Source: Escherichia phage AugustePiccard. From it: DNA of 50,126 nucleotides. The notes below the pieces were generated by a model. It searched no databases. It was not told where the DNA came from and was given only the letters and a program-made list of their open reading frames with translations. Position numbers and translations under genes: made by a program. The stretch is taken from sequence record MZ501051; one strand, written 5' to 3'. Shown piece by piece: positions 609 to 48,681 of the stretch; the stretch's first letter is position 1, and each line of letters opens with the position of its first letter.

Positions 609-2177
609 ATGGCTAATTTAATCTGGGAAGAAATGACAAGTCAGGAGAAATTAGCCGTTAAAGCTATCTCAGAGCATAGTTTTGAGGGCTTTTTAAGGTG
701 TTGGTTTTCAATAACACAAGGCGAGCGATACATACCTAACTGGCATCACAAGTACCTGTGTAGAATCATTGACGAGATTATCGCAGGGGAACGTAAGGAC
801 ACCATCATCAACATAGCGCCGGGCAGCGGAAAGACAGAAATCGCTTCAATCCACTTCCCTGCCTACTCTATGGTTAAGCTGAAGAAGGTGCGGAACCTTA
901 ACATCTCCTTTGCTGACTCACTGGTTAAGCGTAACTCGAAGCGCGTACGTGACCTTATCAAATCTCAAGAATTTCAATCACTCTGGCCATGCAAGTTTGG
1001 AACGTGCAAAGACGATGAACTTCAGGTTCTTGATGAGAATGGCAGGGTTAGATTTGAGTCAATATCAAAGGCGGCGGGAGGTCAGATTACAGGCGCTCGA
1101 GGTGGCTATATAACAGAAACATACAGCGGGGCCGTTCTATTGGATGATTTCGACAAGCCGGCTGACATGCTTTCTCAGGTTTATCGAACGAATAATCACG
1201 TAATGCTCAAGAACACAATTCGCTCACGTCGAGCTAGCTCTGTGAAAGGCAAGGCAACGCCAATAATTTCTATACAGCAGCGACTCCATGTGAATGATAG
1301 CACTTGGTTCATGATGGAAGGTGGTATGGGTATTGACTTCGACTTGATTAAGATACCGGCATTGGTTACTGAGGATTACATTGATTCACTTCCTGACTGG
1401 ATTAAAGAGCAGTTTGCTGATGACGTACTAAGTAGCGAATATATTGAGCGAGATGGCGTAAAATACTACAGTTATTTCCCTAAAAAGGAATCTGTAAACG
1501 ACCTAGTGGCAATGTGGGATAGTGACCCGTACACATTCCTTAGCCAGTATCAGCAGGAACCTGTAGCGCTCGGCGGCAATCTGATTAACGTGGATTGGTT
1601 CCAGAGAATCAGCGATACGTTCAGACCTCCAGCTAAATATGACTATCGATTCATAACTTGCGACACTGCGATGACTACAAAGAGTTATAGTGACTTCTCT
1701 GTACTTCAATTGTGGGGCTATAAAGATGCCAAGATTTACCTGATAGACCAGCGTAGAGGTAAGTGGGAGGCGCCGGAGTTGGAATCTGAACTACTGGATT
1801 TCGAGAGGAAATCAAGAGCAACCAGTCAGACGGATGGTATCCTTAGAAAGATTATCATCGAGAAGAAGGCTTCCGGAATTGGCCTAATTCAATCCGCAGG
1901 TAGAGTTATGCGAACACCGATAGAGCCATATGTTCCGGATAACGACAAGCTAACCAGGATAATGAGCGCCCTGCCGCAGATTAAGGCTGGTAACGTCGTT
2001 CTTCCAGAATCAGCACCGTGGCTAAATGGATTGCTTACGGAGGTTGCGGCTTTCACCGCGGATGACTCTCATAAGCACGACGACCAAATTGACTGTCTAA
2101 CAATGGCGGTAAACCTTGTTCTCAATATAGCAGATGATCCAAAATCAAGAATGCTTCGCCTTGCCGGAATAAAATAG
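609..2177 (+). CDS. terL: terminase large subunit
   Basis: 522 aa; Walker-A-like NIAPGSGKTEIAS; C-terminal nuclease-like acidic residues; first gene of the morphogenesis block. Confidence 0.8.
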   Translation: MANLIWEEMTSQEKLAVKAISEHSFEGFLRCWFSITQGERYIPNWHHKYLCRIIDEIIAGERKDTIINIAPGSGKTEIASIHFPAYSMVKLKKVRNLNISFADSLVKRNSKRVRDLIKSQEFQSLWPCKFGTCKDDELQVLDENGRVRFESISKAAGGQITGARGGYITETYSGAVLLDDFDKPADMLSQVYRTNNHVMLKNTIRSRRASSVKGKATPIISIQQRLHVNDSTWFMMEGGMGIDFDLIKIPALVTEDYIDSLPDWIKEQFADDVLSSEYIERDGVKYYSYFPKKESVNDLVAMWDSDPYTFLSQYQQEPVALGGNLINVDWFQRISDTFRPPAKYDYRFITCDTAMTTKSYSDFSVLQLWGYKDAKIYLIDQRRGKWEAPELESELLDFERKSRATSQTDGILRKIIIEKKASGIGLIQSAGRVMRTPIEPYVPDNDKLTRIMSALPQIKAGNVVLPESAPWLNGLLTEVAAFTADDSHKHDDQIDCLTMAVNLVLNIADDPKSRMLRLAGIK

Positions 2178-2217
2178 CACTTTATGCAAAGAATAAAGCT
2201 CACGGATGAGCTAACAT
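2173..2217 (+). promoter_or_regulatory. degenerate box promoter upstream of HNH copy 1
   Basis: AATAGCACTTTATGCAAAG; the TAG is the terL stop codon; weak -10. Confidence 0.3.
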
Positions 2218-2239
2218 AATCAAAACAAGAGTGGGTGTT

Positions 2240-2716
2240 ATGAATTGGGCTGAATTTTTTAGATACGAAGATGGAAATCTGGTAAGGGTTACCACAACCT
2301 CAAGTAGAGCTATTGAGGGCATGGTTGCTGGAAGCTTGTCTGGCAATGGCTATCTGCACATAAGAATAGGCGACAGGCGTGTAAAAAACCATCTCATAAT
2401 TTGGGAGATGCACAATGGAAGGATACCAGAAGGGATGGAGATAGATCATATCAATCACATAAAGACAGATAACAGGATCGAGAATTTAAGGCTCGTAAGT
2501 CACAAACAGAACCTATCAAACGCATCTCTTAGGTCAGACTCGTCAACTGGTGCGAGTGGCGTTAGTTGGAACAGAAACAGGCAGAAGTGGCACGCTTATA
2601 TAAAGTCTAACTACAAGAGGATGCACATAGGATTTTTTGATTCCTTTGATGATGCCGTAGCAGCAAGAAAGAAAAAGGAGATTGAATTGGGATTTCATGA
2701 GAATCACGGAAAATAG
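2240..2716 (+). CDS. HNH homing endonuclease with AP2-like DNA-binding domain (copy 1)
   Basis: Motif IDHINHIKTDNRIENLR plus SGVSW..W.AYI; starts MNW like copies 2 and 3 (track ORF begins at GTG 2231). Confidence 0.8.
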   Translation: MNWAEFFRYEDGNLVRVTTTSSRAIEGMVAGSLSGNGYLHIRIGDRRVKNHLIIWEMHNGRIPEGMEIDHINHIKTDNRIENLRLVSHKQNLSNASLRSDSSTGASGVSWNRNRQKWHAYIKSNYKRMHIGFFDSFDDAVAARKKKEIELGFHENHGK

Positions 2717-2756
2717 CACGAATTGCTAAACGACTAGGCCACGGATGGCGTATAGT
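2711..2756 (+). promoter_or_regulatory. box promoter (palindromic box + 22 nt + -10)
   Basis: AAATAGCACGAATTGCTAAA, 22-nt spacer, TATAGT; leader CAAAACGAGAGGAG. Confidence 0.6.
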
Positions 2757-2787
2757 TACCTTACCAAAACGAGAGGAGAAAAGATAA

Positions 2788-3168
2788 ATGACAAAAAAAT
2801 CAAAGGCTGTATATCTTGGCAACACCGAAGGAGAGTATTATGGTTTCACTGTAGGGAATGAATATGATGTTCACAATTATGAAACTGAAGATAACTTCAT
2901 TGGTACTTTTGGTGATGATGGTGGTTATCGTCACATCAAGAACGGAGCATTCCACAAGTTCGAACTCCTCGAGGATTATGATTTCGTAACTGAAAGCGAA
3001 TGCGCAGTCATGCCCCTTAGTTCCGATAAACAACCAGAGCTTAGATATTTCATAAACGGTCATGAGTTTAATAAGATTGAGTTCGAAAATGTGCGCTATA
3101 CTGTAAATCAACTTGATGAGGGCGGCGTAAAATGCGACACAATCAAGTTCGAAGTAAAATTCGAGTAA
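2788..3168 (+). CDS. hypothetical small protein (moron; paralogue of 17915..18232)
   Basis: Own box promoter and conserved leader; shares GEY.FT.G..Y pattern with ORF 17915..18232; followed by a terminator. Confidence 0.6.
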   Translation: MTKKSKAVYLGNTEGEYYGFTVGNEYDVHNYETEDNFIGTFGDDGGYRHIKNGAFHKFELLEDYDFVTESECAVMPLSSDKQPELRYFINGHEFNKIEFENVRYTVNQLDEGGVKCDTIKFEVKFE

Positions 3169-3189
3169 CCACAAAAGCTATGATAAACT

Positions 3190-3212
3190 AGCCCCCACAT
3201 GGGGCTTTTTTA
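3190..3212 (+). terminator. rho-independent terminator
   Basis: Hairpin GCCCC-ACAT-GGGGC plus T6. Confidence 0.7.
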
Positions 3213-3225
3213 TTGGAGAAACACA

Positions 3226-4488
3226 ATGGTAAAAACAGACAGCTACGCCAATATCTTTCTCGGCGGCAGTGATGGCAGTGAGATTTACGGGAGCTTACAG
3301 AATCAGGAACCTACTATTCTGGCTTCGCTTTATGCGGATAATGCCCTGGTGCGTCGAATTATTGACACAATCCCGGAAACAGCATTAGCGGCAGGATTCA
3401 ACATTGATGGTGTTGATGATGAATCTGCATTCTGGTCGCGCTGGGATGATTTGGAGATGACGCAGAATATTAACGACGCTTGGTCATGGGCAAGGTTATT
3501 CGGTGGAGCAGCAATTGTCGCTATCGTTAAGGACAATAGAGCGCTAACAAGTCCGGTCAGAGAAGGCGCCGAGCTTGAAACGGTTCGCGTTTACGACCGC
3601 ACACAGGTAAAAGTACAAACCCGCGAGGAAAATCCAAGAAACTCGCGATTTGGTAAGCCCCTAACCTATCGCATCACCACTAATGAGAGCGATATGTTCT
3701 TCGATGTGCACTACAGCCGTATTCACGTCATTGACGGAGAGCGAGTCCCTAACGTAATGCGCAGGCAGAATGATGGCTGGGGCCGCAGCGTTCTATCTAG
3801 TGACATTCTTGACTCGATTAAGGATTACACCAACTGTGAACGACTTGCCACGCAATTACTGAAGCGTAAGCAGCAAGCGGTGTGGAAAGCAAAAGGTCTG
3901 GCTGAGTTATGTGATGATAGCGAAGGATTCGGCGCGGCAAGATTAAGGCTTGCACAGGTAGATAATAACAGTGGCGTTGGTCAGGCGATTGGCATTGACG
4001 CGGAATCGGAAGAGTACAGCGTACTCAACTCTGATATTGGCGGGATTGATGCATTCCTGGATAAGAAGTTCGACAGAATCGTTGCGCTGAGCGGCATCCA
4101 TGAAATCATCCTGAAGAACAAGAACGTTGGCGGCGTGTCATCAAGCCAGAATACGGCACTGGAGACATTCCATAAGCTAGTTGACCGCAAGCGTAATGCT
4201 GAGCTACTTCCTATTCTTGAGTTCTTAATCCCGTTCATCGTTAACGTATCGGAATGGTCAGTTGAGTTTAACGCCCTCGCTCAGGAGTCCAGCAAGGATA
4301 AAGCCGAGATTCTTGAGAAGAACGTAAACAGTATCGCAGCACTAATTGCAGCTGGAGCTATGGATACTAACGAAGCCCGTGATACACTACGAACTATCGC
4401 GCCAGAGATTAAGATTGGTGAAGGTGATATTGAGGTTGAAGAACCAACTCAGGAAGTAATCGCGCAGACAGAGGAACCTAATGAATGA
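3226..4488 (+). CDS. portal protein
   Basis: About 420 aa, follows the terminase; acidic C-terminus; RBS GGAG before ATG 3226 (the track start at 3199 lies inside the terminator hairpin). Confidence 0.65.
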   Translation: MVKTDSYANIFLGGSDGSEIYGSLQNQEPTILASLYADNALVRRIIDTIPETALAAGFNIDGVDDESAFWSRWDDLEMTQNINDAWSWARLFGGAAIVAIVKDNRALTSPVREGAELETVRVYDRTQVKVQTREENPRNSRFGKPLTYRITTNESDMFFDVHYSRIHVIDGERVPNVMRRQNDGWGRSVLSSDILDSIKDYTNCERLATQLLKRKQQAVWKAKGLAELCDDSEGFGAARLRLAQVDNNSGVGQAIGIDAESEEYSVLNSDIGGIDAFLDKKFDRIVALSGIHEIILKNKNVGGVSSSQNTALETFHKLVDRKRNAELLPILEFLIPFIVNVSEWSVEFNALAQESSKDKAEILEKNVNSIAALIAAGAMDTNEARDTLRTIAPEIKIGEGDIEVEEPTQEVIAQTEEPNE

Positions 4489-4521
4489 TGAATTTGATGG
4501 CTTTTAGTGAGGAGAATTGGG

Positions 4522-5613
4522 ATGTCTAAAATCCGCTATGACAGCGCAAAGGTGAAAGCCCGATTTGATGAAAACGGTTTTCTGGTTGATACCCCGATTG
4601 TTGCTCGCGTCGGGGTGCAAACATACTACCTTCCGGACGGTACAGAACGCAGAGAATTTAGACCAGCCTCAGAGGTCTTTAAATCTGATTCTCTGGCTAG
4701 TTATCAGGGTAAGCCAATTACCTTAGGTCATGTGTTTGTTAACGCAGACAATGCTAAAGAGGTTGTTGTGGGTGCAGTATCTGGCTCAGCAATGCGCGAA
4801 GATTCAAGCGTGATTGTTCCGCTAACCATTTACGATAAGGAGTCAATCGAGAAGGCCAGAAATGGGATCGCTGGTGAGTTGTCGGTTGGGTACCACACTG
4901 TTGATGTTGAGTCCAAAGGCTGGGGTAGCAACGAAACCGGTGAATATAAGCTGGATGGAGAGTATGGCTCACAAGATGAGATTCCTTCTGACTGGGTTAG
5001 ATTTGATGCTCTACAAACCGAAATCAAGGTAAACCACGTCGCTCTTGTTTATAAAGGTCGCGCCGGTGTGGCCAAACTTAACTTTGACGCTCATCAGGAA
5101 AACCCGTATACTACTGACGTTGATATCAATAAAGAGGATAAACAGGAAATGACAGTTAAAATTAAACTCGACGGCGCGCAGGAATTTGAAGTCGCACCGG
5201 AAATCGCTTCTCACATCGAAGCACTGAACGCAAAGGCTGACACCGCAATCGCTGAACGCGACGCACTGAAAGCTAAAGTAGATGCAATTCCATCTGAAAT
5301 CGAAGCTGCCGTTGCCAAAGCGAAAGCTGATGCTGATGCCCTGGCCGCTCTGGTTGCTGTTGCTGCTGAAGCTGGTGTTAAGGCTGACGGTCTGGATGCT
5401 AAAGGCATTAAAGTGGCTTACGTTAAAGAAGTCTCCGGACTTGATGTTTCCGAGAAATCCGACGCGTACATCGACGCGGCGTTCGACATTGCCAAAGAAT
5501 CTGATAAAATGGCTGAAGTACGTAAAGCGACTACCGCTTCCGACAAATCTGACAGCGCCGATGAGCCTAAGAAATTAGACCCGCGTGCTCGTTTAGCTAA
5601 AATTAAGAAATAA
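4522..5613 (+). CDS. prohead protease / scaffold-like protein
   Basis: Follows the portal; C-terminal Ala/Lys/Glu-rich coiled-coil region (EALNAKADTAIAERDALKAKVDA...) typical of scaffolds; RBS GAGGAG before ATG 4522. Confidence 0.55.
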   Translation: MSKIRYDSAKVKARFDENGFLVDTPIVARVGVQTYYLPDGTERREFRPASEVFKSDSLASYQGKPITLGHVFVNADNAKEVVVGAVSGSAMREDSSVIVPLTIYDKESIEKARNGIAGELSVGYHTVDVESKGWGSNETGEYKLDGEYGSQDEIPSDWVRFDALQTEIKVNHVALVYKGRAGVAKLNFDAHQENPYTTDVDINKEDKQEMTVKIKLDGAQEFEVAPEIASHIEALNAKADTAIAERDALKAKVDAIPSEIEAAVAKAKADADALAALVAVAAEAGVKADGLDAKGIKVAYVKEVSGLDVSEKSDAYIDAAFDIAKESDKMAEVRKATTASDKSDSADEPKKLDPRARLAKIKK

Positions 5614-5625
5614 GGAGTTATAAAC

Positions 5626-6132
5626 ATGGCAATTCGTTCCGTAGCACTGGCTGGTATGGTTTCTGATACCTCTCTGTACAACATCGACGGCGCTTGTGTA
5701 GTTGGTGGCATTGCTGCAATTCCAGTTGGCACTGCAGTTCGCGTAACAACAGCTCAGCCTATTGATGGGCACAAGGTTGTAGTTAACACTGGCATCTCAG
5801 CAGATGAAACACCGTATGGTGTTGTAATTCGCTCCCATTATGAAACTCCTGATGGAACCGCTAAGGCACAGGAAGCAGTTAACGTAATGACTCATGGCCG
5901 AGTGTGGATGCGCGCAGCGAGCAACGTAACCGCTGAGTCTGTAAAGGTTGGTGCGGCTGTTAGTATTAGCGCATCTGGTCTCGTTGATACTGGCGGCGTT
6001 GGCAAGCCTAACTGGACTTACGCAGGTGGTTTTATTTCTAATGCCGTAACCAACCCTCAAGCCAATGACTTCGATCAGCAGGATACTAGCGTTGATGGCG
6101 CCCTGGTTGAAGTGCAGATTCGTCAGGCATAA
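5626..6132 (+). CDS. head-associated protein (possible decoration protein)
   Basis: 168 aa, Gly/Val/Thr-rich, strong RBS AAGGAG; sits between scaffold and capsid genes. Function by position only. Confidence 0.35.
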   Translation: MAIRSVALAGMVSDTSLYNIDGACVVGGIAAIPVGTAVRVTTAQPIDGHKVVVNTGISADETPYGVVIRSHYETPDGTAKAQEAVNVMTHGRVWMRAASNVTAESVKVGAAVSISASGLVDTGGVGKPNWTYAGGFISNAVTNPQANDFDQQDTSVDGALVEVQIRQA

Positions 6133-6165
6133 TCAACTGTTGCAGCTTAATAATTAAGATACATA

Positions 6166-6190
6166 AAGCCTCCTTCGGGAGGTTTTTTTA
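6166..6190 (+). terminator. rho-independent terminator
   Basis: CCTCC-TTCG-GGAGG plus T7. Confidence 0.75.
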
Positions 6191-6243
6191 CGCCTATAAT
6201 CTGTTAACATGGGGTTCCATAAACGCATAAAGGAAACTTAATA

Positions 6244-7533
6244 ATGAACTTTTTAGATTTAGTCAGAAAGCAATACGATAGCGGAAAGGTTAGTCTTTCA
6301 GGAGTAAAGGTTAGCACTGACTTCACAACCACTTCATTAATTCAAGCAGCAACGACAATAGCTAACCCAGTCACTCACACCCGCAAGGATGAAACTAAAT
6401 TTAAGTTTACCACTTACGGGCTGGCTGATGTTTCCGGCGGCTCCTATACTGGGCAGTCGCCAAATGGCGTGCAAATGAAAATTGAGTTCATGACTGACGC
6501 GCTTGTCTTTGAGTTCAAGACTATCGGCTCTATCGGTACGTACTCTGTATTTGTTGATGGAGAGCTAACCAATATTGATGCAATCTCAACTCCTAACGGT
6601 CAAGCCGTTACTTACGTAAGAACCGAAGCCTCAGATGGCGTAATTAAGAGAATGAGACACGTCGAGATTTATGGGGTGAACACTTCATTCGGCGGGTTGT
6701 TTACCGACGCTGCGGATACGGTAACCAGCGAAATCACCATCGATCCAAAACCTTTTATCTACCAGATGGGTGACAGTTACACGTACGGCACTGGCGCAGG
6801 CTACGTAACTCAGGCATACGGCTCATCCCCAGCGATTAACGATTTCTACGTGTTCAGAAATGCGCTAGGCATGGACGGCATCGCGGAAGGTATCGGTGGT
6901 AGCGGATGGAACAGCACGGGCGGGCAAGTTCCGGCCTCAAGGTTGCAAAACAGACTGCTTAAGATGAATCGCAAGCCAGATGTTGTTAGTTTCGCTCTCG
7001 CATACAATGACGCTGCGGCTATTAACACTGGAACTAACGCAAGCAAACTAGTTACCTCGATGGGTGACGCGCTAAAGGTTGTCCGAGATGCAATGCCTGG
7101 CGTTCCTGTTATTCATGTTAGCTGTGCCACGCCAAAAGGAATCACCACGCAAATTCAGAGAGTCATAGACCTTACTCATGATTTTTGCGCAAGAAATGAC
7201 ATTCCCGTGATTGGGATTAGTAACTACGTGACTGCGGCGAACAGCATTTCATACACTGGAACGGATAACGTCCACCCAAACCCTCTGGGGCACGAATTCC
7301 GCGGTTTAGCTATGGCAAGGGAGTCATTAATGGCGGCGCTGGAAGGTCGTAGCCTGGTGCCAGAAATCAAACCCAGCGGTTTCACTGTAACTTACATTGA
7401 GCGACTCCGCTTCGCGGTTGATGTTAAGCGTGAGGTTGTTCAAGCTAAAACCGCAGATGAGGCATACTGGATGGTTAAATCTCGGGAGTACAGCAATCCA
7501 GACTTGAGAATCGAAATCATTTCTGTAGCATAA
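6244..7533 (+). CDS. SGNH/GDSL-family hydrolase (esterase) domain protein
   Basis: GDS block [11 protein letters not shown] and catalytic DxxH block [12 protein letters not shown] in the C-terminal half; flanked by terminators inside the head module. Confidence 0.6.
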
Positions 7534-7537
7534 CAAC

Positions 7538-7562
7538 AAGCCTCCTTCGGGAGGTTTTTTAT
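7538..7562 (+). terminator. rho-independent terminator
   Basis: CCTCC-TTCG-GGAGG plus T7; near-identical to the terminator at 6166. Confidence 0.75.
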
Positions 7563-7615
7563 TAACCTTAACTCTGTTAGACTTATTAGGTCTATTAACC
7601 AATCAGGAGATTAAG

Positions 7616-9049
7616 ATGGCTAGCGAATTAAGAGCAGTAACCGCTGGGACTGCCCACGCCCTAAAGCAAAAAATCATGGAATACATTGCTGATGGTTGGC
7701 AGCCTTATGGAAGAATCCTTAACGCTGGAGCGACTAGCGTTGGTATCATCATGGCGAAAGGTACTACAGCAAGCATTAATGATGTTGATGTTATTACCGC
7801 AGATTCAAGGGCTTCTTTAGTTTCTAAGATTAACTCATCCATCGAAAATGGGTTTGAGATGTTCGGAGAGCAGGAAGTGAACGCAAGTAGATTTATCGCC
7901 TTCATGACTAAGGGTTCTCAAGGTTCATCTGGTGGCGGTGGAGAACCTGGACCAATTGGGCCTAAGGGTGAGAAGGGTGACAAGGGCGACAAGGGAGATG
8001 TTGGTGAGCGCGGACCCGCTGGCCTAGCTGGTGCGGCTGGCGCTACTGGTCCATCTGGCCCTCAAGGTTTAACTGGCCCCGCCGGCGCTAAAGGTGATAC
8101 TGGTGAGCAGGGACCAATGGGTCCAACTGGCGCTACTGGACCTAAAGGTGATACTGGCGAAACTGGTCCCGCCGGACCGCAGGGCCCAAGAGGATTGCAA
8201 GGTGAGCAGGGGGTTCCGGGCGAGGTTGGTCCTGCTGGATTGACATTCCAGGGCGCATGGGATTCTGCTGCGACATATGTGAAGGATGACACTGTAGTTT
8301 ATGATGGGTCTACTTGGTTTGCTCCAGATGCTGTAGCTGCTGGATTAGTCCCTGGAGTTGCTACTGAGTGGATTCTTTTAGCTGCGCAAGGCGCAAGGGG
8401 CGAGGATGGTCCGCAGGGTCCGGTTGGCCCTCAGGGTTTACAGGGTGCCACTGGCCCAGCGGGTCCTACTGGTGCTACTGGTGCTACAGGCCCGCAAGGC
8501 CCTAGAGGTATACAAGGTCAAACTGGCCCGGCAGGCCCAGCAGGTCCTCAGGGTGAGGCTGGTCCTCAGGGTATTCAGGGTCCGCAGGGTGTCGCTGGGC
8601 CTCAGGGATTAACTGGTCCTCAGGGTCCAAAAGGTGATAAAGGCGATGCTCCTTACACATTATTTAACTCGCAGAACGTTACATCAACATACATTGAAAT
8701 CCCTATTCCGCAAGTAACCAACACTGTACTTAGGGTTAGGCTTTCAGGTGCCAACTTTGAATATAGCGTTTTAAGCAAAGGCGGCGCCAATAGATATGTT
8801 GACTTTTACACATTCATCCCGTCATTAACTAGCTCAACGGGTAACATCTATACCGGAGGAACTACCTTGACACCAACTGGTAGCCTCTTTTTGGGTAACT
8901 CCCCCGTGGCTCTTGGATTGAGGGAGTTGACAATAACACTCAAGGAATGGGGCGACAGAACGCTAACTACAATAAAGGCGATACATCACGGCAGATCAGG
9001 TGACACAACAAGACCTTTGCAGATAACTATGTTTAGTAATAAGTATTAA
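7616..9049 (+). CDS. collagen-like (Gly-X-Y repeat) structural protein
   Basis: Two long Gly-X-Y tracts ([23 protein letters not shown]... and [20 protein letters not shown]...) between globular N- and C-terminal domains. Confidence 0.75.
7933..8643 (+). repeat. Gly-X-Y coding repeats (GGN-NNN-NNN periodicity)
   Basis: Repetitive GGT/GGC-CCN triplets inside the collagen-like gene. Confidence 0.7.
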
Positions 9050-25669: not shown

Positions 25670-25670
25670 C

Positions 25671-37266: not shown

Positions 37267-37296
37267 AAGCACATAAACAACGAAGAGGGTTAAGAG

Positions 37297-37422
37297 ATGA
37301 AAATTGTAGACAAAGAGATGTTCGAGATCGCACAAGCATACGCAAATGACGCAGTTAAAACTGGTTCGGAATACTGCTGGATGTGCGCTAAAGAATACCT
37401 GAAAATGGCTTACGGGTTATGA
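37297..37422 (+). CDS. hypothetical small protein (41 aa)
   Basis: Downstream of a box promoter; RBS AAGAGGG; ATGA overlap with next gene; below the ORF-track size cutoff. Confidence 0.35.
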   Translation: MKIVDKEMFEIAQAYANDAVKTGSEYCWMCAKEYLKMAYGL

Positions 37423-39135: not shown

Positions 39136-39179
39136 ATAGCACCTTTTGTTAAAACAGTAGCCGCGAAAGCGGCTATTAT
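39133..39179 (+). promoter_or_regulatory. box promoter upstream of HNH copy 3
   Basis: AAATAGCACCTTTTGTTAAA, 22 nt (contains hairpin GCCGCGAAAGCGGC), TATTAT. Confidence 0.55.
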
Positions 39180-39207
39180 TGTTTTATACAAACGATAGGA
39201 GATTGAA

Positions 39208-39693
39208 ATGAATTGGCATGATATTTTTGAATACAACGATGGCATTCTTTATCATAAAGTTAAGTTATGTATAAGAAATGATGTTAACGTTGGTGATATT
39301 GCTGGGGGGGGCGTTAGGCAAAACGGCTATCACTACGTGAATTACAAAAATAAGTTTTACAAAAGGTCAAGGGTTGTATGGGAGATGTTTAATGGAGATA
39401 TACCTGAGGGATTTGTCATTGATCACGTCAACCATGACGCGACAGATGACAGGATAGAAAACCTAGAGTGCAAGGAGCGCAGGGATAACATGGTTAATGT
39501 AAAGCTAAGGATTGATAGCTCCTCTGGTGTAACTGGTGTAGCAAGAAAGAGCGGTAATAAGTGGAGGGCATACATAACAATCATGGGTAAGCAGAAGTCC
39601 AAGAGCTTTAACACGTTTGAGGATGCTTGCGCACAGAGGATTGAATGGTCGGTAACTCATGATTTTCACCCAAATCACGGTGGAAAATACTAA
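39208..39693 (+). CDS. HNH homing endonuclease with AP2-like domain (copy 3)
   Basis: Motif IDHVNHDATDDRIENLE; N-terminus MNWHDIFEY; own box promoter. Confidence 0.75.
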   Translation: MNWHDIFEYNDGILYHKVKLCIRNDVNVGDIAGGGVRQNGYHYVNYKNKFYKRSRVVWEMFNGDIPEGFVIDHVNHDATDDRIENLECKERRDNMVNVKLRIDSSSGVTGVARKSGNKWRAYITIMGKQKSKSFNTFEDACAQRIEWSVTHDFHPNHGGKY

Positions 39694-39737
39694 ATAGCAC
39701 TTTTTGCCTAACCCATGCCGTAGAAATGCGGCATAAT
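39693..39737 (+). promoter_or_regulatory. box promoter (variant)
   Basis: AAATAGCACTTTTTGCCTAA, CATAAT, leader CACATCGAAACGAG. Confidence 0.5.
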
Positions 39738-39778
39738 CACCACATCGAAACGAGATTAACTAAACGAGGAAACGCAAG

Positions 39779-39980: not shown

Positions 39981-40008
39981 AGGGGGGCCTTTTGGCTCCC
40001 CTTTTTTA
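39981..40008 (+). terminator. rho-independent terminator before the lysis cassette
   Basis: G-rich/C-rich hairpin plus T6. Confidence 0.6.
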
Positions 40009-40085
40009 TGCTTCTTTTCCGAGAGGCGCTAATGTATGATTATTTTACTAACTTAAACATTGACAAATAGATAAAGGTGGGTCAC

Positions 40086-40301: not shown

Positions 40302-40787
40302 ATGAAGCAGAAGCTGGTAGTTGGTGCCGCGACCGCTGCAGCGATATACATCGCAGCGCCTCTTATTGAGCTTGTGGAGGGTGTCGAATACAATCCATAC
40401 ATGGATATTGCTGGAATCCCTACAGTCTGTTCTGGCATTACTGGTCCTGACGTTGTTTGGGGTAAAAAATACAGCAAGAGGGAATGCCGAAACCTGCTTG
40501 AGAAACACATTCAGATTCATGGAAAGCATGTTCATGATGCAGTTACCTACCCAATTTCACCGCAGACAAGGGCAGCGTTAATCAGCTTTAGCTACAACGT
40601 TGGTGGTCATGCCATGAAGAACTCAACGGCAATTCGCCTTATCAACCAGGGTAAGATTGAGCAGGGTTGTAAGGCTCTCGGGATGTGGACGAAGGCCACC
40701 GTTAATGGCAAGAAGGTTGTCGTTAAGGGGTTAGTGAATCGCAGGAATGAGGAGATTAAGTTATGCTTAAGTGGATTGCAGCGTTAG
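40302..40787 (+). CDS. SAR endolysin (T4-lysozyme-like muramidase)
   Basis: N-terminal signal-anchor VVGAATAAAIYIAAPLI followed by catalytic E-x8-D-x5-T (EGVEYNPYMDIAGIPT). Confidence 0.75.
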   Translation: MKQKLVVGAATAAAIYIAAPLIELVEGVEYNPYMDIAGIPTVCSGITGPDVVWGKKYSKRECRNLLEKHIQIHGKHVHDAVTYPISPQTRAALISFSYNVGGHAMKNSTAIRLINQGKIEQGCKALGMWTKATVNGKKVVVKGLVNRRNEEIKLCLSGLQR

Positions 40788-41514: not shown

Positions 41515-43098
41515 TCACCCCAGCAGTCGTGGATTAATGTAAACTTTATCACCAATCAGGCATGTATAGTTTTTCTCATCTAACATCGGCAGCAAGTGGT
41601 CTTTAATCTTTGTCATCACTCCAGCCTGAGACTCGAACGGCTTAACCTTGCGCGCAGCCTCATACAATGAACGAATGCCAACTACGCCTTTCCCGTTCTT
41701 TCCTTGCTTGATAAGGATATCAATCAGCTTATTCATCTCGGCATTGTCGCCAGCGTGACCAGCGGCGTTAGCAGATGACAGATAAGTCTTGCTAAGCTCC
41801 TGGAACATGATTACAGCCTCTTGCATTGTGTCCAGTCCAATCTCTCTGGACTTCTGCGGGCTTCCGCCATTTGGGTTAAACCAGTTACGGACAGTGTGAA
41901 TAACTGCGGCAATCCTGATAGCCTGCTTATCGAACTTGCCCAGCGCGCCGCGCAACATAGTATGTGAATACTTACCGCCATCAGCAAGATGGGGCTCCAT
42001 TTCCTGACGTGCACGGTTGAGATATTTCATCGCTGAGTTACTCACTGTCAGCTTTACTTCCTGCTCGCTCATGATTTCGTGAACCAAGCGGAAGTAGTCA
42101 GCCTTCAGTCCGCTGTCAATTGGCTCGTATGTTGACTCTCCATTCTCATCAACGAATACACGTTCGCCCAGGAAGGACTTTTCACGCACAAGCAGAAAAC
42201 GCTCCGACACACCGATACCACGCGCACCAGCATTCATAATGGCGTTGATTGTTTCGTCCTGCGCAATTACCGAGATGCAACCCATAGCAACGAAACTCAT
42301 GTTGTTCTCTGCGTTCGCACGCGCGATAGATACGTTACCAGCATCCCATGCTTTAAGCACGAGTTCACTGTTTGTTTTCTTTGAGCCATCTCCATAGGTC
42401 ATGCCCAGAAGTGAGTTCACGCTCGTCGCCTCATCCGAGATTACTGCGAAGTTTCCCTGGCGGTTGTTTATTCGCGCAAGTCCCTCAGGCGTGGTGTCGG
42501 ATACGGGGAAAACGATATCGCATAGCTTCTCGAGTTTCTCCTCCAACTCCTCTTTCTCTTCAAAAAGTGAAGCCATCTCTGAAGGAGATTTTTCCTGCTT
42601 CATCTCTTTGGATAATGCAGATAGTTTGGCCATAATCTTTTTGCGCTCGCGTTTTCGCAATTCATTTAGTCGCTCAGTCTCGGCAATCATCGGGGCAATA
42701 GAAAGTGAGTTAATCGCTGATTTACCGGTCGATGGAGGTTGACTTGTAACTACGTAAAGAGATGTTGGCTGCTGCGTTCCGTGATACTCAACAGTAAAGC
42801 GGCCCAGCATAGCAGCGGAAATGCAACCCAAAAAGTGCATATAAGCTGAAGACTCCGGGAACTGAACAGAACGAGCAATGTTGGCTGACAGTCTACCAAC
42901 AACGTCAACATCATTTCCGAGCGAGATTACAGGATACTTGTCATTGGCCGCATCAATCTCGACCGGTGCTTTCCAGAATGACTGAGACTGGCGATAGCCA
43001 TTAGCATTGATAGCCACGCGCAGGGGTGGGAGGTTTTCTGCGGCAGCTATTGCCATAACTTGTTCAACAGATAGTTTATCTTCGTTGAAATCAAACAT
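41515..43098 (-). CDS. large hypothetical protein with deviant P-loop (replication-associated?)
   Basis: 527 aa; P-loop-like PPSTGKS; N- and C-terminal segments paralogous to ORF 45945..46469; RBS GGAGAG. Confidence 0.55.
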   Translation of the reverse strand: MFDFNEDKLSVEQVMAIAAAENLPPLRVAINANGYRQSQSFWKAPVEIDAANDKYPVISLGNDVDVVGRLSANIARSVQFPESSAYMHFLGCISAAMLGRFTVEYHGTQQPTSLYVVTSQPPSTGKSAINSLSIAPMIAETERLNELRKRERKKIMAKLSALSKEMKQEKSPSEMASLFEEKEELEEKLEKLCDIVFPVSDTTPEGLARINNRQGNFAVISDEATSVNSLLGMTYGDGSKKTNSELVLKAWDAGNVSIARANAENNMSFVAMGCISVIAQDETINAIMNAGARGIGVSERFLLVREKSFLGERVFVDENGESTYEPIDSGLKADYFRLVHEIMSEQEVKLTVSNSAMKYLNRARQEMEPHLADGGKYSHTMLRGALGKFDKQAIRIAAVIHTVRNWFNPNGGSPQKSREIGLDTMQEAVIMFQELSKTYLSSANAAGHAGDNAEMNKLIDILIKQGKNGKGVVGIRSLYEAARKVKPFESQAGVMTKIKDHLLPMLDEKNYTCLIGDKVYINPRLLG

Positions 43099-43172
43099 TA
43101 TTTCTCTCCGTGCTGATTCTGAGCGGTCATTATATCAACGACCGCTTATAATTCATTATCAATTTTTGCTAT

Positions 43173-43523: not shown

Positions 43524-43560
43524 TTTATTTACCTTTCGTTATTTCGTTTCGATGAGATGA

Positions 43561-43607
43561 ATATACAGGAAAAGCCCCCGAAGGGCTTTATCAATTAGTG
43601 CTATTTC
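43561..43607 (-). promoter_or_regulatory. box promoter with terminator hairpin in the spacer
   Basis: Minus strand: AATAGCACTAATTGATAAA, 22-nt spacer holding hairpin AGCCCTTCGGGGGCT, TATATT, leader CATCTCATCGAAACGAAAT. Confidence 0.5.
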
Positions 43608-44796: not shown

Positions 44797-44823
44797 ATCT
44801 ATACCCTCGTTGTTGATGAGCTA

Positions 44824-44870
44824 ACTATACCCTCAACAGCCGCGCTTGTCTTTAGCAAAAAGTGCTATTC
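44824..44870 (-). promoter_or_regulatory. box promoter for the leftward small-gene block
   Basis: Minus strand: GAATAGCACTTTTTGCTAAAG, about 23 nt, TATAGT, leader CATCAACAACGAGGG. Confidence 0.55.
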
Positions 44871-44895
44871 GTTAGATTTATGGATTGTTGCGGAT

Positions 44896-44939
44896 ATTGC
44901 AATGATTCCCATGATTATTGCACATATAGCAATATTGCT
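44896..44939. promoter_or_regulatory. cluster of short palindromes (ATTGCAAT, AGCAATATTGCT) in divergent region B
   Basis: Perfect palindromes sharing the TTGC/GCAA half-site with the promoter box. Confidence 0.4.
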
Positions 44940-45150
44940 TCAGATGCAATGATGTTTTTGATTGTTGCGAAATGAGCAATAAAGTAGTGAGTGAGTGAAT
45001 GAAAGATGGATGGACTACCATACAAGTTGATTTTGATTCTGCTAATCCATTTTCACGCTTACACGTAACGCCCGTAGCGCGATGTAAGCCAACGCCTATC
45101 GTTACGCGAGTTACGCGCAGCTACGCCTAGACTTACACTATAAGTGCCTA

Positions 45151-45200
45151 ATATATATATATATCTTCTTTCTATTATTATTATTATTATTATTATTATT
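45151..45200. repeat. microsatellite (AT)7 ... (ATT)9 in divergent region B
   Basis: atatatatatatat then (att) x9. Confidence 0.85.
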
Positions 45201-45405
45201 GTATGTAAGTCATGTAACGGGGTTTCCGGCGATATCTATATGTTTTTTCCTATCAGTTATAGCCTTGGCTATAATTTAAGGTATGGAGTGGGTGTTTTGG
45301 GGCCATTTGCCTCGTTACACGCACGACACGCCACTTACATTAAGCTATAGCTGGGCTAGCATACCATTTCGCGTAACGACCCCCAAAAGTTACCAAAAAT
45401 TACAC

Positions 45406-45434
45406 TTGACTACATGTGTAAGTCGGGATATGAT
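45406..45434 (+). promoter_or_regulatory. canonical sigma70-like promoter (TTGACT-17-TATGAT)
   Basis: TTGACT 45406-45411, 17-nt spacer, TATGAT 45429-45434, then leader AAACGAGAGGAG. Confidence 0.5.
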
Positions 45435-45945: not shown

Positions 45946-46469
45946 TGTTTGACTTTAACGAGGATAAACTGACAGAAGAGCAGGTAATTGAGATAGCCAA
46001 GCAAGATGGGCTGCCGCCGCTGCGAATTGCAATCAATGCTAACGGGTATCGACAGTCAACGGCGTTTTGGGGCTCGATTGATACCTCAGGGGTGTATAGT
46101 GGTGATGAGCTTGGTGTAATGATTAAAATCATCAGGAAAATGGGAGTTAACGGCAAAGGAGTTGTTGGCGTCAGGTCTCTATATGAAGGTGCTCGCAAGC
46201 TGAAACCATTTGCGGGGCGCGATGGGATGATGCTACTGATTAAGGATAAGCTAATTCCAGAGCTCGACAAGATGAATATCACGTGCCTCATTGGCGATAA
46301 GATTTACGTCAACCCTGCCTTGACGGATTTAAGCTGGCATCCTAACTTCAAAACTTACGAAGGTGAGCACGCTAGTAGACTACCATACCACTTGCGGTAC
46401 ACTGAGGAAGAGGTGGAGAAGGCTATTGAGTTCTATCGGAAAGCTAAATCACTAATTATCGCCAAATAG
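45945..46469 (+). CDS. truncated paralogue of the 527-aa protein (N- and C-terminal modules only)
   Basis: N-terminus MFDFNEDKLTEEQV...LPPLRIAINANGYRQS and the segment NGKGVVGVRSLYEGARKLKPF...NITCLIGDKIYVNP align to the termini of ORF 41515..43098. Confidence 0.6.
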   Translation: MFDFNEDKLTEEQVIEIAKQDGLPPLRIAINANGYRQSTAFWGSIDTSGVYSGDELGVMIKIIRKMGVNGKGVVGVRSLYEGARKLKPFAGRDGMMLLIKDKLIPELDKMNITCLIGDKIYVNPALTDLSWHPNFKTYEGEHASRLPYHLRYTEEEVEKAIEFYRKAKSLIIAK

Positions 46470-46509
46470 CACGAATTGCTAAACAATGGATCGGGTAGTC
46501 AGCTATGAT
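46464..46509 (+). promoter_or_regulatory. box promoter
   Basis: AAATAGCACGAATTGCTAAA, 22 nt, TATGAT, leader TTCATCGACAACAAAGAGG. Confidence 0.6.
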
Positions 46510-46533
46510 TACTTCATCGACAACAAAGAGGAA

Positions 46534-46746
46534 ATGAAGATGAAAAACGTTATTATTGAAGATATTCACTTTGACCAAGCTGAGGTAGGAATCGCAAAAA
46601 GCGTTCGCGGAAACGTTGTATATCTGAACTTCGATCCAGATAACTACGGGGACGGCCAGACACTGATGCAGTACAGTCCTGAGCAAGCACGCAAACTGGC
46701 GGCGGCGTTAATCATGGCAGCGGACGAGGCGGAGAAGCAGCGATAG
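46534..46746 (+). CDS. hypothetical small protein
   Basis: ATG after box promoter and leader (CATCGACAACAAAGAGGAA). Confidence 0.45.
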   Translation: MKMKNVIIEDIHFDQAEVGIAKSVRGNVVYLNFDPDNYGDGQTLMQYSPEQARKLAAALIMAADEAEKQR

Positions 46747-46786
46747 CACGAATTGTTAAAAAGGGATTCATCCTGACTGGTATAAT
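46743..46786 (+). promoter_or_regulatory. box promoter upstream of the long kinase leader
   Basis: ATAGCACGAATTGTTAAA, 22 nt, TATAAT. Confidence 0.6.
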
Positions 46787-47001
46787 CCCCACATCAACAA
46801 CGAGACACTACTTATCAGGTATGTGACTATGGCGATAAAGTCCATGCCGGACTAGGTTCGCACGGCGTCGATAATAAGTGACAATATACGAACATAAATT
46901 CAGCAGCAGGGGTATTGATATGCTCCTGCACTATTTAGACGAAAAATACGCAAATCTCATGCTTAAGACGCATGGTGGCAAAATAACGAGGATTAACATA
47001 A

Positions 47002-47616: not shown

Positions 47617-47660
47617 ATAGCACGAATTGCTAAACCCGCTCCGGCGGGTTTTGTTATAGT
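47615..47660 (+). promoter_or_regulatory. box promoter with terminator-like hairpin in the spacer
   Basis: AAATAGCACGAATTGCTAAA, spacer CCCGCTCCGGCGGGTTTTG, TATAGT. Confidence 0.6.
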
Positions 47661-47689
47661 TAGTTCACACCAAACGAGAGGTAAGAGAA

Positions 47690-47908
47690 ATGATTACGAT
47701 TAACCTGTCAGACAAGCAAGCCGCCGAACTCAAGTCCATGTTGTCAATATTTGAGAAGCCAAATGACCGAGCAATTGCAAAAGAGGTCATGACTCAAATC
47801 AATAATCAGCAGTTCGACGTAAGTGACTTCGAGTCATCACGGCAGTACGAGGCGCTTAGTGTTAATGCGGCATACCTGACCAACTGGGATAAGGCGACTA
47901 AGAAATGA
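47690..47908 (+). CDS. hypothetical protein
   Basis: 72 aa after box promoter and leader. Confidence 0.45.
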   Translation: MITINLSDKQAAELKSMLSIFEKPNDRAIAKEVMTQINNQQFDVSDFESSRQYEALSVNAAYLTNWDKATKK

Positions 47909-48042
47909 TTTACATCCACACGTACTACACTGGCAAGTTTAACAGTGTTAAGCACATTAGTGTTCACGATACGTACGATAGCGCAAAGGCTCAGTGGTTG
48001 GTTCTTGGCGGCGATATTAATTCATATAGAGTTGCTGAATAG
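47905..48042 (+). CDS. hypothetical small protein (45 aa)
   Basis: ATGA overlap with upstream stop; its stop TAG is part of the next box. Confidence 0.3.
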   Translation: MIYIHTYYTGKFNSVKHISVHDTYDSAKAQWLVLGGDINSYRVAE

Positions 48043-48082
48043 CACTAATTGATAAAACAGCATTGGGGTAATTTGCTATAGT
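48038..48082 (+). promoter_or_regulatory. box promoter (variant)
   Basis: ATAGCACTAATTGATAAA, 22 nt, TATAGT, leader CCCCATCGAAACGAGCGAGG. Confidence 0.55.
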
Positions 48083-48112
48083 TACCCCATCGAAACGAGC
48101 GAGGTCAAAGAG

Positions 48113-48292
48113 ATGAGATTCACCCAATCAGAGCCAAAGCTACAGGCCAACCACTTCGATGGCTACGCAACATTCATCATTGCCCAAGCCTGCGGAATGC
48201 GAGACGAGCCTCAGGTTCACACCATTCACTTGACCGAAGAGCAGGCTCGAGAGTTGTCTTACGAAATTCTAGAGCAATTGAATAGAATTTAA
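48113..48292 (+). CDS. hypothetical small protein (59 aa)
   Basis: Box promoter and leader (CATCGAAACGAGCGAGG) directly upstream. Confidence 0.4.
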   Translation: MRFTQSEPKLQANHFDGYATFIIAQACGMRDEPQVHTIHLTEEQARELSYEILEQLNRI

Positions 48293-48343
48293 CGCGTCTA
48301 AAACGCATTCTAACGAACAATAATTTAAGCGAGGTGATTCATC

Positions 48344-48469
48344 ATGGGAGCACAAGAAAGCCCCGTAGAGTGGTGCAAGCGAATGCAGGACGAAGCTAAA
48401 ACTGGCGAAGAGGCGATGGCCTACTACGAGCTGGCGCAAATGTGGATGCAACGGGAGAAGAAACAATGA
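48344..48469 (+). CDS. hypothetical small protein (41 aa)
   Basis: RBS GAGGTG; stop overlaps next ATG (ATGA). Confidence 0.3.
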   Translation: MGAQESPVEWCKRMQDEAKTGEEAMAYYELAQMWMQREKKQ

Positions 48470-48609
48470 GCTTCACTGAATATGTTATAGCATGTGAACG
48501 ACTGGTCTTTGATATGAAAACTTTCCACTGGTTCATAATTAAAGACTTAATAAAGCCTTACAAGCAGGGCGTTACCCCAGAGGCGTTTGTTAAGTCATTC
48601 TACAAATAG
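48466..48609 (+). CDS. hypothetical small protein (47 aa)
   Basis: Translationally coupled; its stop TAG is the TAG of the next box. Confidence 0.3.
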   Translation: MSFTEYVIACERLVFDMKTFHWFIIKDLIKPYKQGVTPEAFVKSFYK

Positions 48610-48649
48610 CACGAATTGCTAAACGAAGTCGCCACGGATGGCATATAAT
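48604..48649 (+). promoter_or_regulatory. box promoter
   Basis: AAATAGCACGAATTGCTAAA, 22 nt, TATAAT. Confidence 0.6.
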
Positions 48650-48681
48650 TACCCTATCAATACAAAGAGAGAGATTGAGAA

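Follow-up and report, generated by a model that had tools for sequence, protein, structure and literature searches.

Marbox-like class II promoter cassettes across the genome of the T1-like coliphage AugustePiccard and a candidate role for host MarA/SoxS/Rob activators

Which sequences start transcription in T1-like phages, and which protein reads them? To our knowledge, the promoters of these phages have never been defined, and annotators find just 3 to 20 "sigma70" sites per T1-like genome. We analyzed the 50,126-nucleotide (nt) sequence of Escherichia phage AugustePiccard (MZ501051; this whole stretch is hereafter called the window), an Rtp-like, T1-like coliphage of the family Drexlerviridae, subfamily Braunvirinae. 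Both halves of the window are ~85 to 88% identical to RobRod40, JeanPiccard, BEK3, and Rtp, and its gene order is that of JeanPiccard. An original prediction for this sequence had proposed about 20 promoters on both strands, each built on a palindromic box at a fixed distance from a -10 hexamer and bound by a phage protein. The promoter family was borne out, as 22 cassettes and one orphan box. By its sequence, the box is the Escherichia coli marbox, the binding site of the activators MarA, SoxS, and Rob.

The pattern TAGCANNNNNTGCTA (core TAGCA-N5-TGCTA), with at most one mismatch, occurs 23 times in the window compared with 2.0 times expected, a count reached in 0 of 100 shuffles. Curation yielded 22 oriented boxes with a -10-like hexamer and 1 conserved box without a -10 (31948-31967); the earlier box list had lacked those at 25161-25180 (minus strand), 33467-33486 (minus strand), and 39694-39713 (plus strand). 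A listing of the flanks revealed a single oriented type of cassette and no bare palindrome: the box ATAGCAC-nnn-TTGyTAAA, 18 base pairs (bp), a -10 hexamer, a C-A start 7 nt further on, and a short A/C-rich leader. Written in full, the cassette reads aaATAGCAC(G/T)(A/T)(A/T)TTG(C/T)TAAA, ~20 nt, a TATAGT-like hexamer, 5 nt, C-A, TCGAAACGA, a Shine-Dalgarno sequence, and a start codon. Between the 20-bp box and the -10 lie 18 bp in 19 of the 22 cassettes but 19 bp in two (43604 and 44868, minus strand) and 17 bp in one (33949, plus strand). The 22 nt proposed to separate the TGCTA half-site from the -10 are therefore exact in those 19 cassettes but become 23 nt in two and 21 nt in one. Under a stricter hexamer criterion, 17 of 24 boxes keep the fixed offset; with -10-like hexamers at 2% of positions, P is ~4e-24.

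Downstream elements are equally regular. The -10 hexamers match TATAAT at 4 to 6 of 6 positions, G is present at -14 in 65 of 81 sites, and C-A, the optimal start dinucleotide, lies at the optimal distance of 6 to 7 nt past the -10 in 15 of 22 cassettes. This conserved C-A start and the CATCGAAACGA leader were not part of the original prediction, and the canonical -35 that it had placed next to the box is absent: at 17-bp spacing, the hexamer matches TTGACA at a mean of only 1.2 of 6 positions, leaving no usable -35. TTGCTA within the box cannot serve as one, as its distance of 22 bp from the -10 is beyond the sigma70 range. Every cassette faces a Shine-Dalgarno sequence and a start codon; in the 20 cassettes with assigned start codons, these lie 21 to 40 nt past the predicted start, with one exception at 96 nt, and the distance from the box 5' end to the start codon is 66 to 89 nt in most cassettes. 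Inspected by eye, the central triplet classes GAA, TTT, and TAA showed no obvious link to early or late genes in the window. Most cassettes also share an initial transcribed sequence, A-T-C-G/A-A-A-A-C-G-A at +1 to +11 (e.g., 12800-12810, 17891-17901, and 48089-48099), that is common to T1 and to Klebsiella and Pantoea phages and may act in translation or stability or bind a protein.

Three published forms of the marbox consensus recover the box. The consensus AYNGCACNNWNNRYYAAAY quoted in PMC2064960, with at most one mismatch, has 20 matches in the window compared with 1.2 expected, and GCAHWWWWTGYYAAA (PMC6900184) has 21 compared with 1.7 expected. The consensus derived from chromatin immunoprecipitation sequencing (ChIP-seq), gcactaattgctaaa (PMC5684230), with at most two mismatches, has 16 compared with 0.18 expected; one of these is exact and eleven have a single mismatch. 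The exact site, at 26435-26449 on the minus strand, matches the ChIP-seq consensus at 15 of 15 positions, and GCACGAATTGCTAAA, the version most frequent in the phage, falls one position short (14 of 15). For comparison, the E. coli MG1655 sequence has ATGCCACGTTTTGCTAAATC (reverse complement) at the marRAB marbox and ACAGCACTGAATGTCAAAAC at micF. The 20-bp asymmetric box thus follows the marbox code AYnGCACnnWnnRYYAAAY as well as GCAHWWWWTGYYAAA and gcactaattgctaaa. In an unseeded test, cassettes were picked in six genomes by GCAC, TG, and the -10 alone, which gave 72 sites compared with 2 expected. At positions that had not been selected, these 72 cassettes keep the degenerate marbox codes (W9 in 97%, W10 in 99%, Y14 in 88%, Y15 in 92%, and A1 in 89%), and A16 to A18 are kept in 90 to 96%.

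The conserved positions do not form the palindrome that had been proposed as a target for a phage helix-turn-helix (HTH) protein. Conservation is asymmetric, so the box is not a true palindrome: G4 is present in 81 of 81 sites, its dyad partner, position 14, is C in just 48 of 81, and C7 (78 of 81) has no symmetric partner, with G4, C5, C7, and G13 invariant or nearly so. The flanks are AA on both sides of the top strand rather than AA/TT, and A0/A1 and A17/A18 break the dyad. Polarity toward the -10 is constant, with GCAC distal and YAAA proximal in 22 of 22 cassettes. A symmetric operator of the Cro/CI type does not have this asymmetry and fixed polarity, although a 5-bp dyad core does exist. 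Judged from these positions, a monomeric reader with a double HTH suits the asymmetric box better than a symmetric dimer does.

The placement of the box is that of a class II marbox. In class II promoters with MarA, SoxS, Rob, or RamA as activator, a forward marbox lies over the -35 with its center at ~-41, and a canonical -10 follows without a recognizable -35; the activator displaces sigma region 4 from the -35, and in Salmonella class II promoters the -35 match averages 1.9 of 6. In MG1655, the micF box (20 bp) is separated by 18 bp from TAGAAT, which in turn lies 7 nt before the annotated 5' end; the corresponding gap is 18 bp in nfo and inaA and 17 bp in fumC. All 22 phage cassettes have the forward orientation of micF, their boxes cover the -35 position at 17 to 19 bp from the -10, and they combine the lack of a recognizable -35 with a canonical -10. 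If transcription starts 7 nt past the -10, the box center is predicted to lie at -40.5 to -42. These features support, as a prediction from sequence, the class II activator-dependent geometry that had been claimed, with the box as a protein-binding site near -41/-42.

The repeat, though not its meaning, has been described before. In the re-annotation of phage TLS (German, Kropinski et al., PHAGE 2024, PMC11447400), a 21-nt direct repeat, aaATAGCACnnnTTGnTAAAA, was reported at 21 places, co-oriented with transcription and ~76 nt before start codons, and was noted (unpublished) also in T1, Rtp, and Rogue1. This is the same element as the box, since aaATAGCACnnnTTGnTAAAA has 21 copies with at most two mismatches in the window. 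Its role was left open between a stoperator, an enhancer, and a UP-like element; only three sigma70-like promoters were listed, and the repeat was linked neither to a -10 at a fixed distance nor to the marbox (PMC11447400). Our literature search, which did not cover the Rtp and T1 genome papers, turned up the TLS paper alone, and it found no paper giving the exact box or linking the marbox to phage promoters or MarA, SoxS, or Rob to transcription of these phages. Within the literature searched, reading this known repeat as a marbox promoter appears to be new.

The cassette recurs in relatives: JeanPiccard, T1, Klebsiella phage KLPN1, and Pantoea phage AAS23 carry it with an unchanged gap of 18 bp and a leader like that in the window. 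It is absent from Vibrio phage 1.263.A and Salmonella phage Vi II-E1, two distant phages that share the helicase. Dibbivirus, composed of "Xanthomonas" phage DIBBI and its Pantoea twins (95% identity), has T1-like replication genes and 9 to 11 identical cassettes, amid which it encodes a 136-residue stand-alone AraC-type protein, DIBBI_047 (DIBBI 36382-36792). This protein matches HTH_18 at 3e-14 and shares 28% identity with MarA, whose structure (1BL0) is the best match to it among all those solved; it weakly links the box to MarA-type proteins. The DIBBI gene is 95% identical to those of Pantoea phages PSKM and AAM37, which calls the "Xanthomonas" host into question. Near-identical T1-like genomes have likewise been deposited as "Campylobacter phage" and "Pseudomonas phage PsgS01F"; these records are probably E. 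coli phage contaminants or have mislabeled hosts. An 82-residue protein with no assigned function (37419-37667; phrog_2817) is encoded in 6 of 6 box-bearing genomes and in 0 of 2 box-less relatives.

Which protein, then, reads the box? The candidates named earlier were all phage proteins, whereas our best candidate is a host factor. A tblastn search of the window with MarA gave a best E value of only 0.22, and a Pfam scan of 58 proteins found no AraC-type HTH. When MarA and DIBBI_047 were searched by tblastn against 50,697 phage records, no complete Drexlerviridae genome was among the matches listed. A pattern scan of the IMG/VR database, with matches listed within contigs of 41 to 53 kb, yielded no host information, and no AraC/MarA match was found in 0.93 Mb of cassette-bearing IMG/VR DNA. 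With no phage-encoded AraC/MarA homologue in the window or in the Drexlerviridae genomes examined, a host protein is the likeliest reader. Marboxes are bound by each of Rob, MarA, and SoxS, and for Rob no induction is needed. Because the boxes are consensus marboxes at the class II position, host Rob, MarA, or SoxS should bind and activate them, and we somewhat favor the reading that most phage genes are run through these host activators.

Under this host-activator reading, each cassette would be a sigma70 class II activator-dependent promoter in which a forward near-consensus marbox replaces the -35 hexamer. One monomer of a MarA-type (AraC/XylS family, double-HTH) activator would bind the box, with the A site GCAC at ~-47 to -44, the B site TAAA at ~-35 to -33, and the center at ~-41. 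The bound activator would touch sigma70 region 4 and the alpha C-terminal domain and recruit RNA polymerase to the -10, 18 bp further on. Transcription would start at the conserved A of C-A, 7 nt past the -10, and give a 21- to 40-nt, A/C-rich leader that ends in the Shine-Dalgarno sequence. Rob would be present uninduced, MarA and SoxS would act under stress, and RamA would serve in Klebsiella.

Several points weigh against host activators as the readers. MarA and SoxS are scarce without stress, Rob has been described as largely sequestered, and dependence on such proteins looks risky for a virulent phage; moreover, class II activation by RamA and MarA has been reported as just ~2- to 4-fold. 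Position 19 is mostly A where the marbox code asks for Y. Conservation of T2 and A3 stands at ~90%, although position 3 is free in the marbox; with them, the box has a complete 5-bp dyad, TAGCA/TGCTA. The argument that a related phage brings its own MarA is weak because DIBBI_047, as aligned, lacks the base-contacting residues of MarA helix 3 and because the Dibbivirus hosts include Pantoea, an enteric genus. A phage Cro-type regulator with its own canonical promoter is encoded in 6 of 6 box-bearing genomes and 0 of 2 box-less relatives. Finally, whereas motif identity, geometry, asymmetry, family-wide conservation, and the absence of a phage AraC homologue are read directly, we infer the start sites, the binding of Rob, MarA, and SoxS, and the activation.

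That regulator (33463-33936, minus strand; phrog_2856) is the sole phage DNA-binding protein conserved alongside the box. It combines one HTH, all-alpha and Cro-type, with a conserved C-terminal part that contains Cys, and its structure model (predicted local distance difference test score [pLDDT] of 85) has template modeling (TM) scores of ~0.7 to the Xfaso1 and N15 Cro dimers. Its gene has a box-independent sigma70 promoter on the minus strand (33990-34018; TTGTCT at 34018-34013, 17 bp, and TACAAT at 33995-33990, read directly from the sequence), the -10 of which overlaps that of the box-dependent helicase promoter, so that the regulator transcript must cross the box at 33949. T1 has TTGAAT-17-TATAAT at this place in the same face-to-face arrangement, and no element of the regulator/helicase intergenic region other than the box at 33949 is strongly conserved. 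In the host-activator reading, this box would divert polymerase away from the regulator gene and toward the helicase gene. Another canonical sigma70 promoter without a box (45406-45434, plus strand; TTGACT-17-TATGAT, 10 of 12 matches) precedes the first rightward early gene at 45466, so infection can start without the box; with a canonical promoter of its own, the regulator could run a phage early-to-middle cascade.

In such a cascade, which we consider unlikely but live, the early Cro-type regulator would bind as a dimer to the 15-bp dyad TAGCA-N5-TGCTA centered at -42 and activate all of the box promoters, as a class II dimeric activator or T4 MotA does at middle promoters; the likeness to the marbox would then reflect mimicry or common descent. 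Its presence/absence profile, its box-independent promoter, a modeled fold like that of palindrome-binding Cro dimers, the complete dyad with T2 and A3 conserved beyond marbox needs, and a box in its own leader, which would give autoregulation, all speak for it. The profile is, however, based on two distant outgroups only, and the asymmetric conservation and single orientation of the box, with G4 invariant, position 14 degenerate, and C7 and the AA flanks breaking the dyad, do not suit a dimer. It is also extremely unlikely that an unrelated operator would match all 15 marbox positions in class II orientation and spacing. Better-looking operators for a Cro dimer exist elsewhere, namely, four perfect ATTGC-N7-GCAAT palindromes at 44884-44983. 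This cluster (ATTrTTGC-N7-GCAAT, four times, including three copies of a 21-nt repeat) adjoins the box promoter of the leftward early operon and has conserved counterparts in JeanPiccard (40651-40720) and at the T1 left end; it may be the operator set of the Cro-type regulator or a group of replication iterons. The HTH protein that had been put forward as a binder thus stands as a conserved single-HTH, Cro-type rival, but a host factor is preferred. The other phage candidates fared less well: the Rha/anti-repressor-like protein (25671-26348) is absent from the box-bearing JeanPiccard, T1, KLPN1, AAS23, and DIBBI; the supposed HTH-phosphoesterase (38005-39135) is a DNA-repair-exonuclease family protein without an HTH match; and DUF7174, encoded by the first early gene, was found in JeanPiccard only (33% identity).

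Both proteins might also use the box. Host MarA, SoxS, or Rob would activate through the marbox, and the phage Cro-type dimer would compete for the embedded dyad and shut or re-time the promoters. Marbox-specific and dyad-specific positions are both conserved, boxes lie at blocking sites in the regulator leader (33949) and over +1 to +16 of the tail-fiber promoter (31948), and the literature treats MarA-family sites that overlap core promoters as a separate, nonactivating configuration. Nevertheless, we regard this combination as distinctly improbable: the conservation of T2 and A3 may reflect descent from one duplicated ancestor cassette or a flank preference of Rob, and both binding events are putative.

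UP elements are A/T-rich tracts at -40 to -60 that are contacted by the alpha C-terminal domain and have no G/C-specific positions, and mycobacteriophage L5-type stoperators are asymmetric repressor sites scattered inside the transcription units of temperate phages with no fixed relation to a -10. The idea that no protein reads the box, which would instead serve RNA polymerase alone in cis (as a displaced -35 or like a UP element) or be a nonpromoter repeat such as an enhancer, a stoperator, or a site of recombination that shuffles modules, draws on the options listed for TLS (PMC11447400), on the cassettes flanking inserted genes at 2713 and 17841 with near-identical spacers that point to recent duplication, and on -10 hexamers of 4 to 6 of 6 matches with frequent G at -14 that could give some activator-free activity, but it is very improbable, because TTGCTA lies too far from the -10, the box is not an A/T tract and its near-invariant G4, C5, C7, and G13 do not fit a UP element, the fixed 18 bp to the -10 and the C-A start (P ~4e-24) are unexpected of stoperators or recombination sites, and ~25 bits of conserved, oriented sequence imply a sequence-specific reader. 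The box at 31948 is the sole stoperator-like case, and no integrase or repressor module was seen in the window.

The individual cassettes, all of whose starts are predicted, are given here in map order with a gap of 18 bp unless stated otherwise. Near the left end, a weak plus-strand cassette (2174-2224; box ATAGCACTTTATGCAAAGAA at 2174-2193, TAACAT at 2212-2217, start at ~2224) lies upstream of the HNH gene at 2240-2716, and the next (2713-2763, plus strand; box ATAGCACGAATTGCTAAACG at 2713-2732, TATAGT at 2751-2756, start at 2763) serves an inserted open reading frame (ORF) at 2788-3168 (phrog_14592). Directly past the terminator of the major tail gene, the plus-strand cassette at 12750-12800 (box ATAGCACTTTTTGCCAAAGA, TATAGT at 12788-12793, start at 12800) precedes an ORF at 12827-13213. 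That at 17841-17891 (plus strand; box ATAGCACGAATTGCTAAACA, TATAGT at 17879-17884, start at 17891) precedes an inserted ORF at 17915-18232, a phrog_14592 paralog. Three leftward cassettes follow: 24384-24434 (minus strand; box at 24434-24415, TACTAT at 24396-24391, start at 24384) for an ORF starting at 24350; 25130-25180 (minus strand; box ATGGCACGAATTGCCAAAGA at 25180-25161, TATAAT at 25142-25137, start at 25130) for the Dcm-like methylase gene starting at 25107; and 26402-26452 (minus strand; core GCACTAATTGCTAAA at 26449-26435, TATATT at 26414-26409, start at 26402) for the Rha/anti-repressor-like gene. The plus-strand cassette at 28104-28154 (TATGAT at 28142-28147, start at 28154) has GGGG/CCCC arms around its -10 and leads into a 24-codon ORF at 28179 and then the Erf gene.

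Around the regulator gene, the HNH gene starting at 33411 is preceded by the cassette at 33436-33486 (minus strand; box GCAGCACGAAAAGCTAAAGA at 33486-33467, CATAAT at 33448-33443, start at 33436), and the helicase gene at 34038 is preceded by that at 33949-33998 (plus strand; box ATAGCATTTTTTGTTAAAAG, 17 bp, TAGTAT at 33986-33991, start at ~33998). Further plus-strand cassettes lie at 36445-36495 (TATTAT at 36483-36488, start at 36495; ORF at 36527) and 37223-37273 (box ATAGCACTTTTTGTTAAAAC, TATATT at 37261-37266, start at 37273; ORF at 37297). The one at 39136-39186 (plus strand; box ATAGCACCTTTTGTTAAAAC, TATTAT at 39174-39179, start at 39186), with the terminator-like hairpin tagccgcgaaagcggcta in its spacer, precedes the HNH gene at 39208, and that at 39694-39744 (plus strand; box ATAGCACTTTTTGCCTAACC, spacer hairpin, CATAAT at 39732-39737, start at 39744) precedes an ORF at 39779 and has a deviant B site that is also found in T1, JeanPiccard, AAS23, and DIBBI. 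Three HNH_3 homing-endonuclease genes (2240-2716, 32932-33411, and 39208-39693) each have a box cassette directly before them, and the first has an extra weak AP2-domain match.

In the right part, a weak minus-strand cassette (43122-43172; box ATAGCAAAAATTGATAATGA at 43172-43153, TATAAT at 43134-43129, start at ~43122) with CGGTC/GACCG arms around its -10 serves the DUF3987 helicase gene starting at 43098. Both 19-bp cassettes are also leftward: 43553-43604 (minus strand; box ATAGCACTAATTGATAAAGC at 43604-43585, terminator-like hairpin gcccttcgggggctttt in the gap, TATATT at 43565-43560, start at 43553), before an ORF starting at 43523, and 44817-44868 (minus strand; box ATAGCACTTTTTGCTAAAGA at 44868-44849, TATAGT at 44829-44824, start at 44817), which heads the first leftward early operon (ORF start at 44796). 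Rightward cassettes occupy 46466-46516 (plus strand; TATGAT at 46504-46509, start at 46516; ORF at 46540), 46743-46793 (plus strand; box ATAGCACGAATTGTTAAAAA, TATAAT at 46781-46786, start at 46793; followed by short ORFs only), 47617-47667 (plus strand; terminator-like spacer hairpin cccgctccggcgggtttt, TATAGT at 47655-47660, start at 47667; ORF at 47690), 48039-48089 (plus strand; box ATAGCACTAATTGATAAAAC, GGGGTA/TACCCC arms around TATAGT at 48077-48082, start at 48089; ORF at 48113), and 48606-48656 (plus strand; box ATAGCACGAATTGCTAAACG, TATAAT at 48644-48649, start at 48656; ORF at 48682).

Hairpins had been expected in the spacer only sometimes; they are present but are in fact the rule, since hairpins of -8 kcal/mol or below in folding free energy lie between box and start in 48 to 71% of cassettes compared with 10 to 25% of background in six genomes. 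Hairpins of one type stay entirely upstream of the -10 and resemble a terminator of the unit before the cassette. Those of T1 coincide with annotated terminators (38973-39001, 39998-40024, and 41980-42007; adjoining boxes at 38953, 39976, and 41956), and the T1 ortholog of the 39136 cassette has a compensatory G:C-to-C:G swap in the hairpin stem. Because there is no -35 constraint, the spacer from -30 to -13 is free in sequence and can hold a terminator, often that of the upstream unit; the result would be very compact terminator-inside-promoter modules. In the second type, the arms flank the -10 (e.g., GGGGTA...TATAGT TACCCC), the discriminator covaries with -25 to -20, and no U-tract follows; such inverted repeats are located at 28126-28153, 48049-48088, 43124-43143, and many T1 sites (1450-6600).

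The orphan box at 31948-31967 (plus strand; ATAGCACGAATTGCTAAAGT) indeed has no -10 on its own strand, as had been noted. On the minus strand, the extended -10 TGATACAAT (31978-31970, read directly from the sequence) fires into the box toward the lateral tail fiber gene, so that the box covers ~+1 to +16 of the predicted transcript and a protein bound there would block rather than activate. This arrangement is conserved in JeanPiccard (TGCTACAAT) and T1 (TGATAAAAT). The units at 2713-3168 and 17841-18232 are paralogous insertions, each pairing a box promoter with a gene for a "virion structural protein" (phrog_14592), and their promoter spacers are nearly identical. JeanPiccard, T1, KLPN1, and AAS23 have neither unit, and these cassettes therefore look like mobile promoter-gene modules.

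Elsewhere in the window, an insertion of two large genes (6244-9049) separates the protease/scaffold genes from the major capsid gene; one is head-decoration-like (phrog_9703), the other encodes a collagen-repeat fiber-like protein (phrog_5073), and the four Drexlerviridae compared have neither. An origin or a pac-related region may lie in a large noncoding early stretch (45047-45400), where direct and inverted repeats of the GTTACGCG/CTTACAC type are scattered and which also contains a (TA)n run and, at 45150-45200, an (ATT)10 microsatellite. As in related phages, a tRNA-Arg gene (anticodon TCT) is present at 49558-49635.

The broader proposal is that virulent Drexlerviridae and Dibbivirus have wired nearly all of their transcription units to the host MarA/SoxS/Rob/RamA regulon, with the embedded dyad letting a Cro-type protein override it; to this we give slightly less than an even chance. 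If true, phage expression would rise with signals of antibiotic tolerance, such as bile salts, salicylate, redox drugs, and some antibiotics, and each replicating genome would add ~20 top-affinity decoy sites that could drain activators from host promoters. Phage expression would also be tied to the regulon of efflux pumps, porins, and TolC, the last being itself a receptor for TLS-type phages. T1-like phages are classic laboratory pests, are common in gut and sewage, and are candidates for therapy; the proposal bears on phage-antibiotic synergy or antagonism, on success in the bile-rich gut, and on promoter annotation in >1,000 sequenced relatives. The class II marbox reading is a concrete, testable promoter model; if it holds, synthetic biology would gain a set of natural marbox promoters that are compact and strong and have their terminators built in.

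How does the cassette compare with known systems? By inspection, the box resembles the sigma54 site TGGCAC-N5-TTGCA, but its GC/GC spacing falls 2 bp short, and the -10 downstream is of the sigma70 type; sites of SlyA, OxyR, CRP, and FNR, the LysR-type T-N11-A motif, and the TTGC repeats of lambda CII, compared by eye, misfit in half-site order or spacing. T4 middle promoters, which use sigma appropriation by MotA and AsiA, likewise have a good -10, an activator box in place of the -35, and genome-wide repeats. The T4 MotA box, TGCTTtA, is centered at -30, 11 to 13 bp from the -10, and is read by the phage proteins MotA and AsiA, whereas the box described here ends 18 bp from the -10 with its center at ~-41, and no MotA or AsiA family was among the Pfam matches of the 58 proteins. 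The PeSL elements of T4-type phages are mobile promoter-stem-loop cassettes that flank variable genes and may mediate module shuffling; ours are similarly short repeated promoter-plus-hairpin modules, those at 2713 and 17841 each before an inserted paralogous gene, but the promoter type is different and the likeness in recombination role is putative. The class II CRP/FNR-type promoters, with which the cassettes had been compared in the original prediction, also have a site centered at ~-41.5 over the -35; these sites, however, are true dyads read by dimers, whereas the phage box is asymmetric and matches a monomeric double-HTH site. The class II promoters of E. coli and Salmonella (micF, nfo, inaA, fumC, and lpxC P2) share with the phage cassettes a 20-bp asymmetric marbox with A site GCAC and B site YAAA and a forward box over the -35, centered at ~-41, without a usable -35. 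Compared with these, the phage cassettes belong to a virulent genome, where ~22 copies stand before early, replication, and lysis genes and some structural ones; their spacers hold terminator or other hairpins, the initial transcribed sequence is conserved, binding of the host protein is putative, and the phage boxes are nearer to the consensus than are most host marbox sites.

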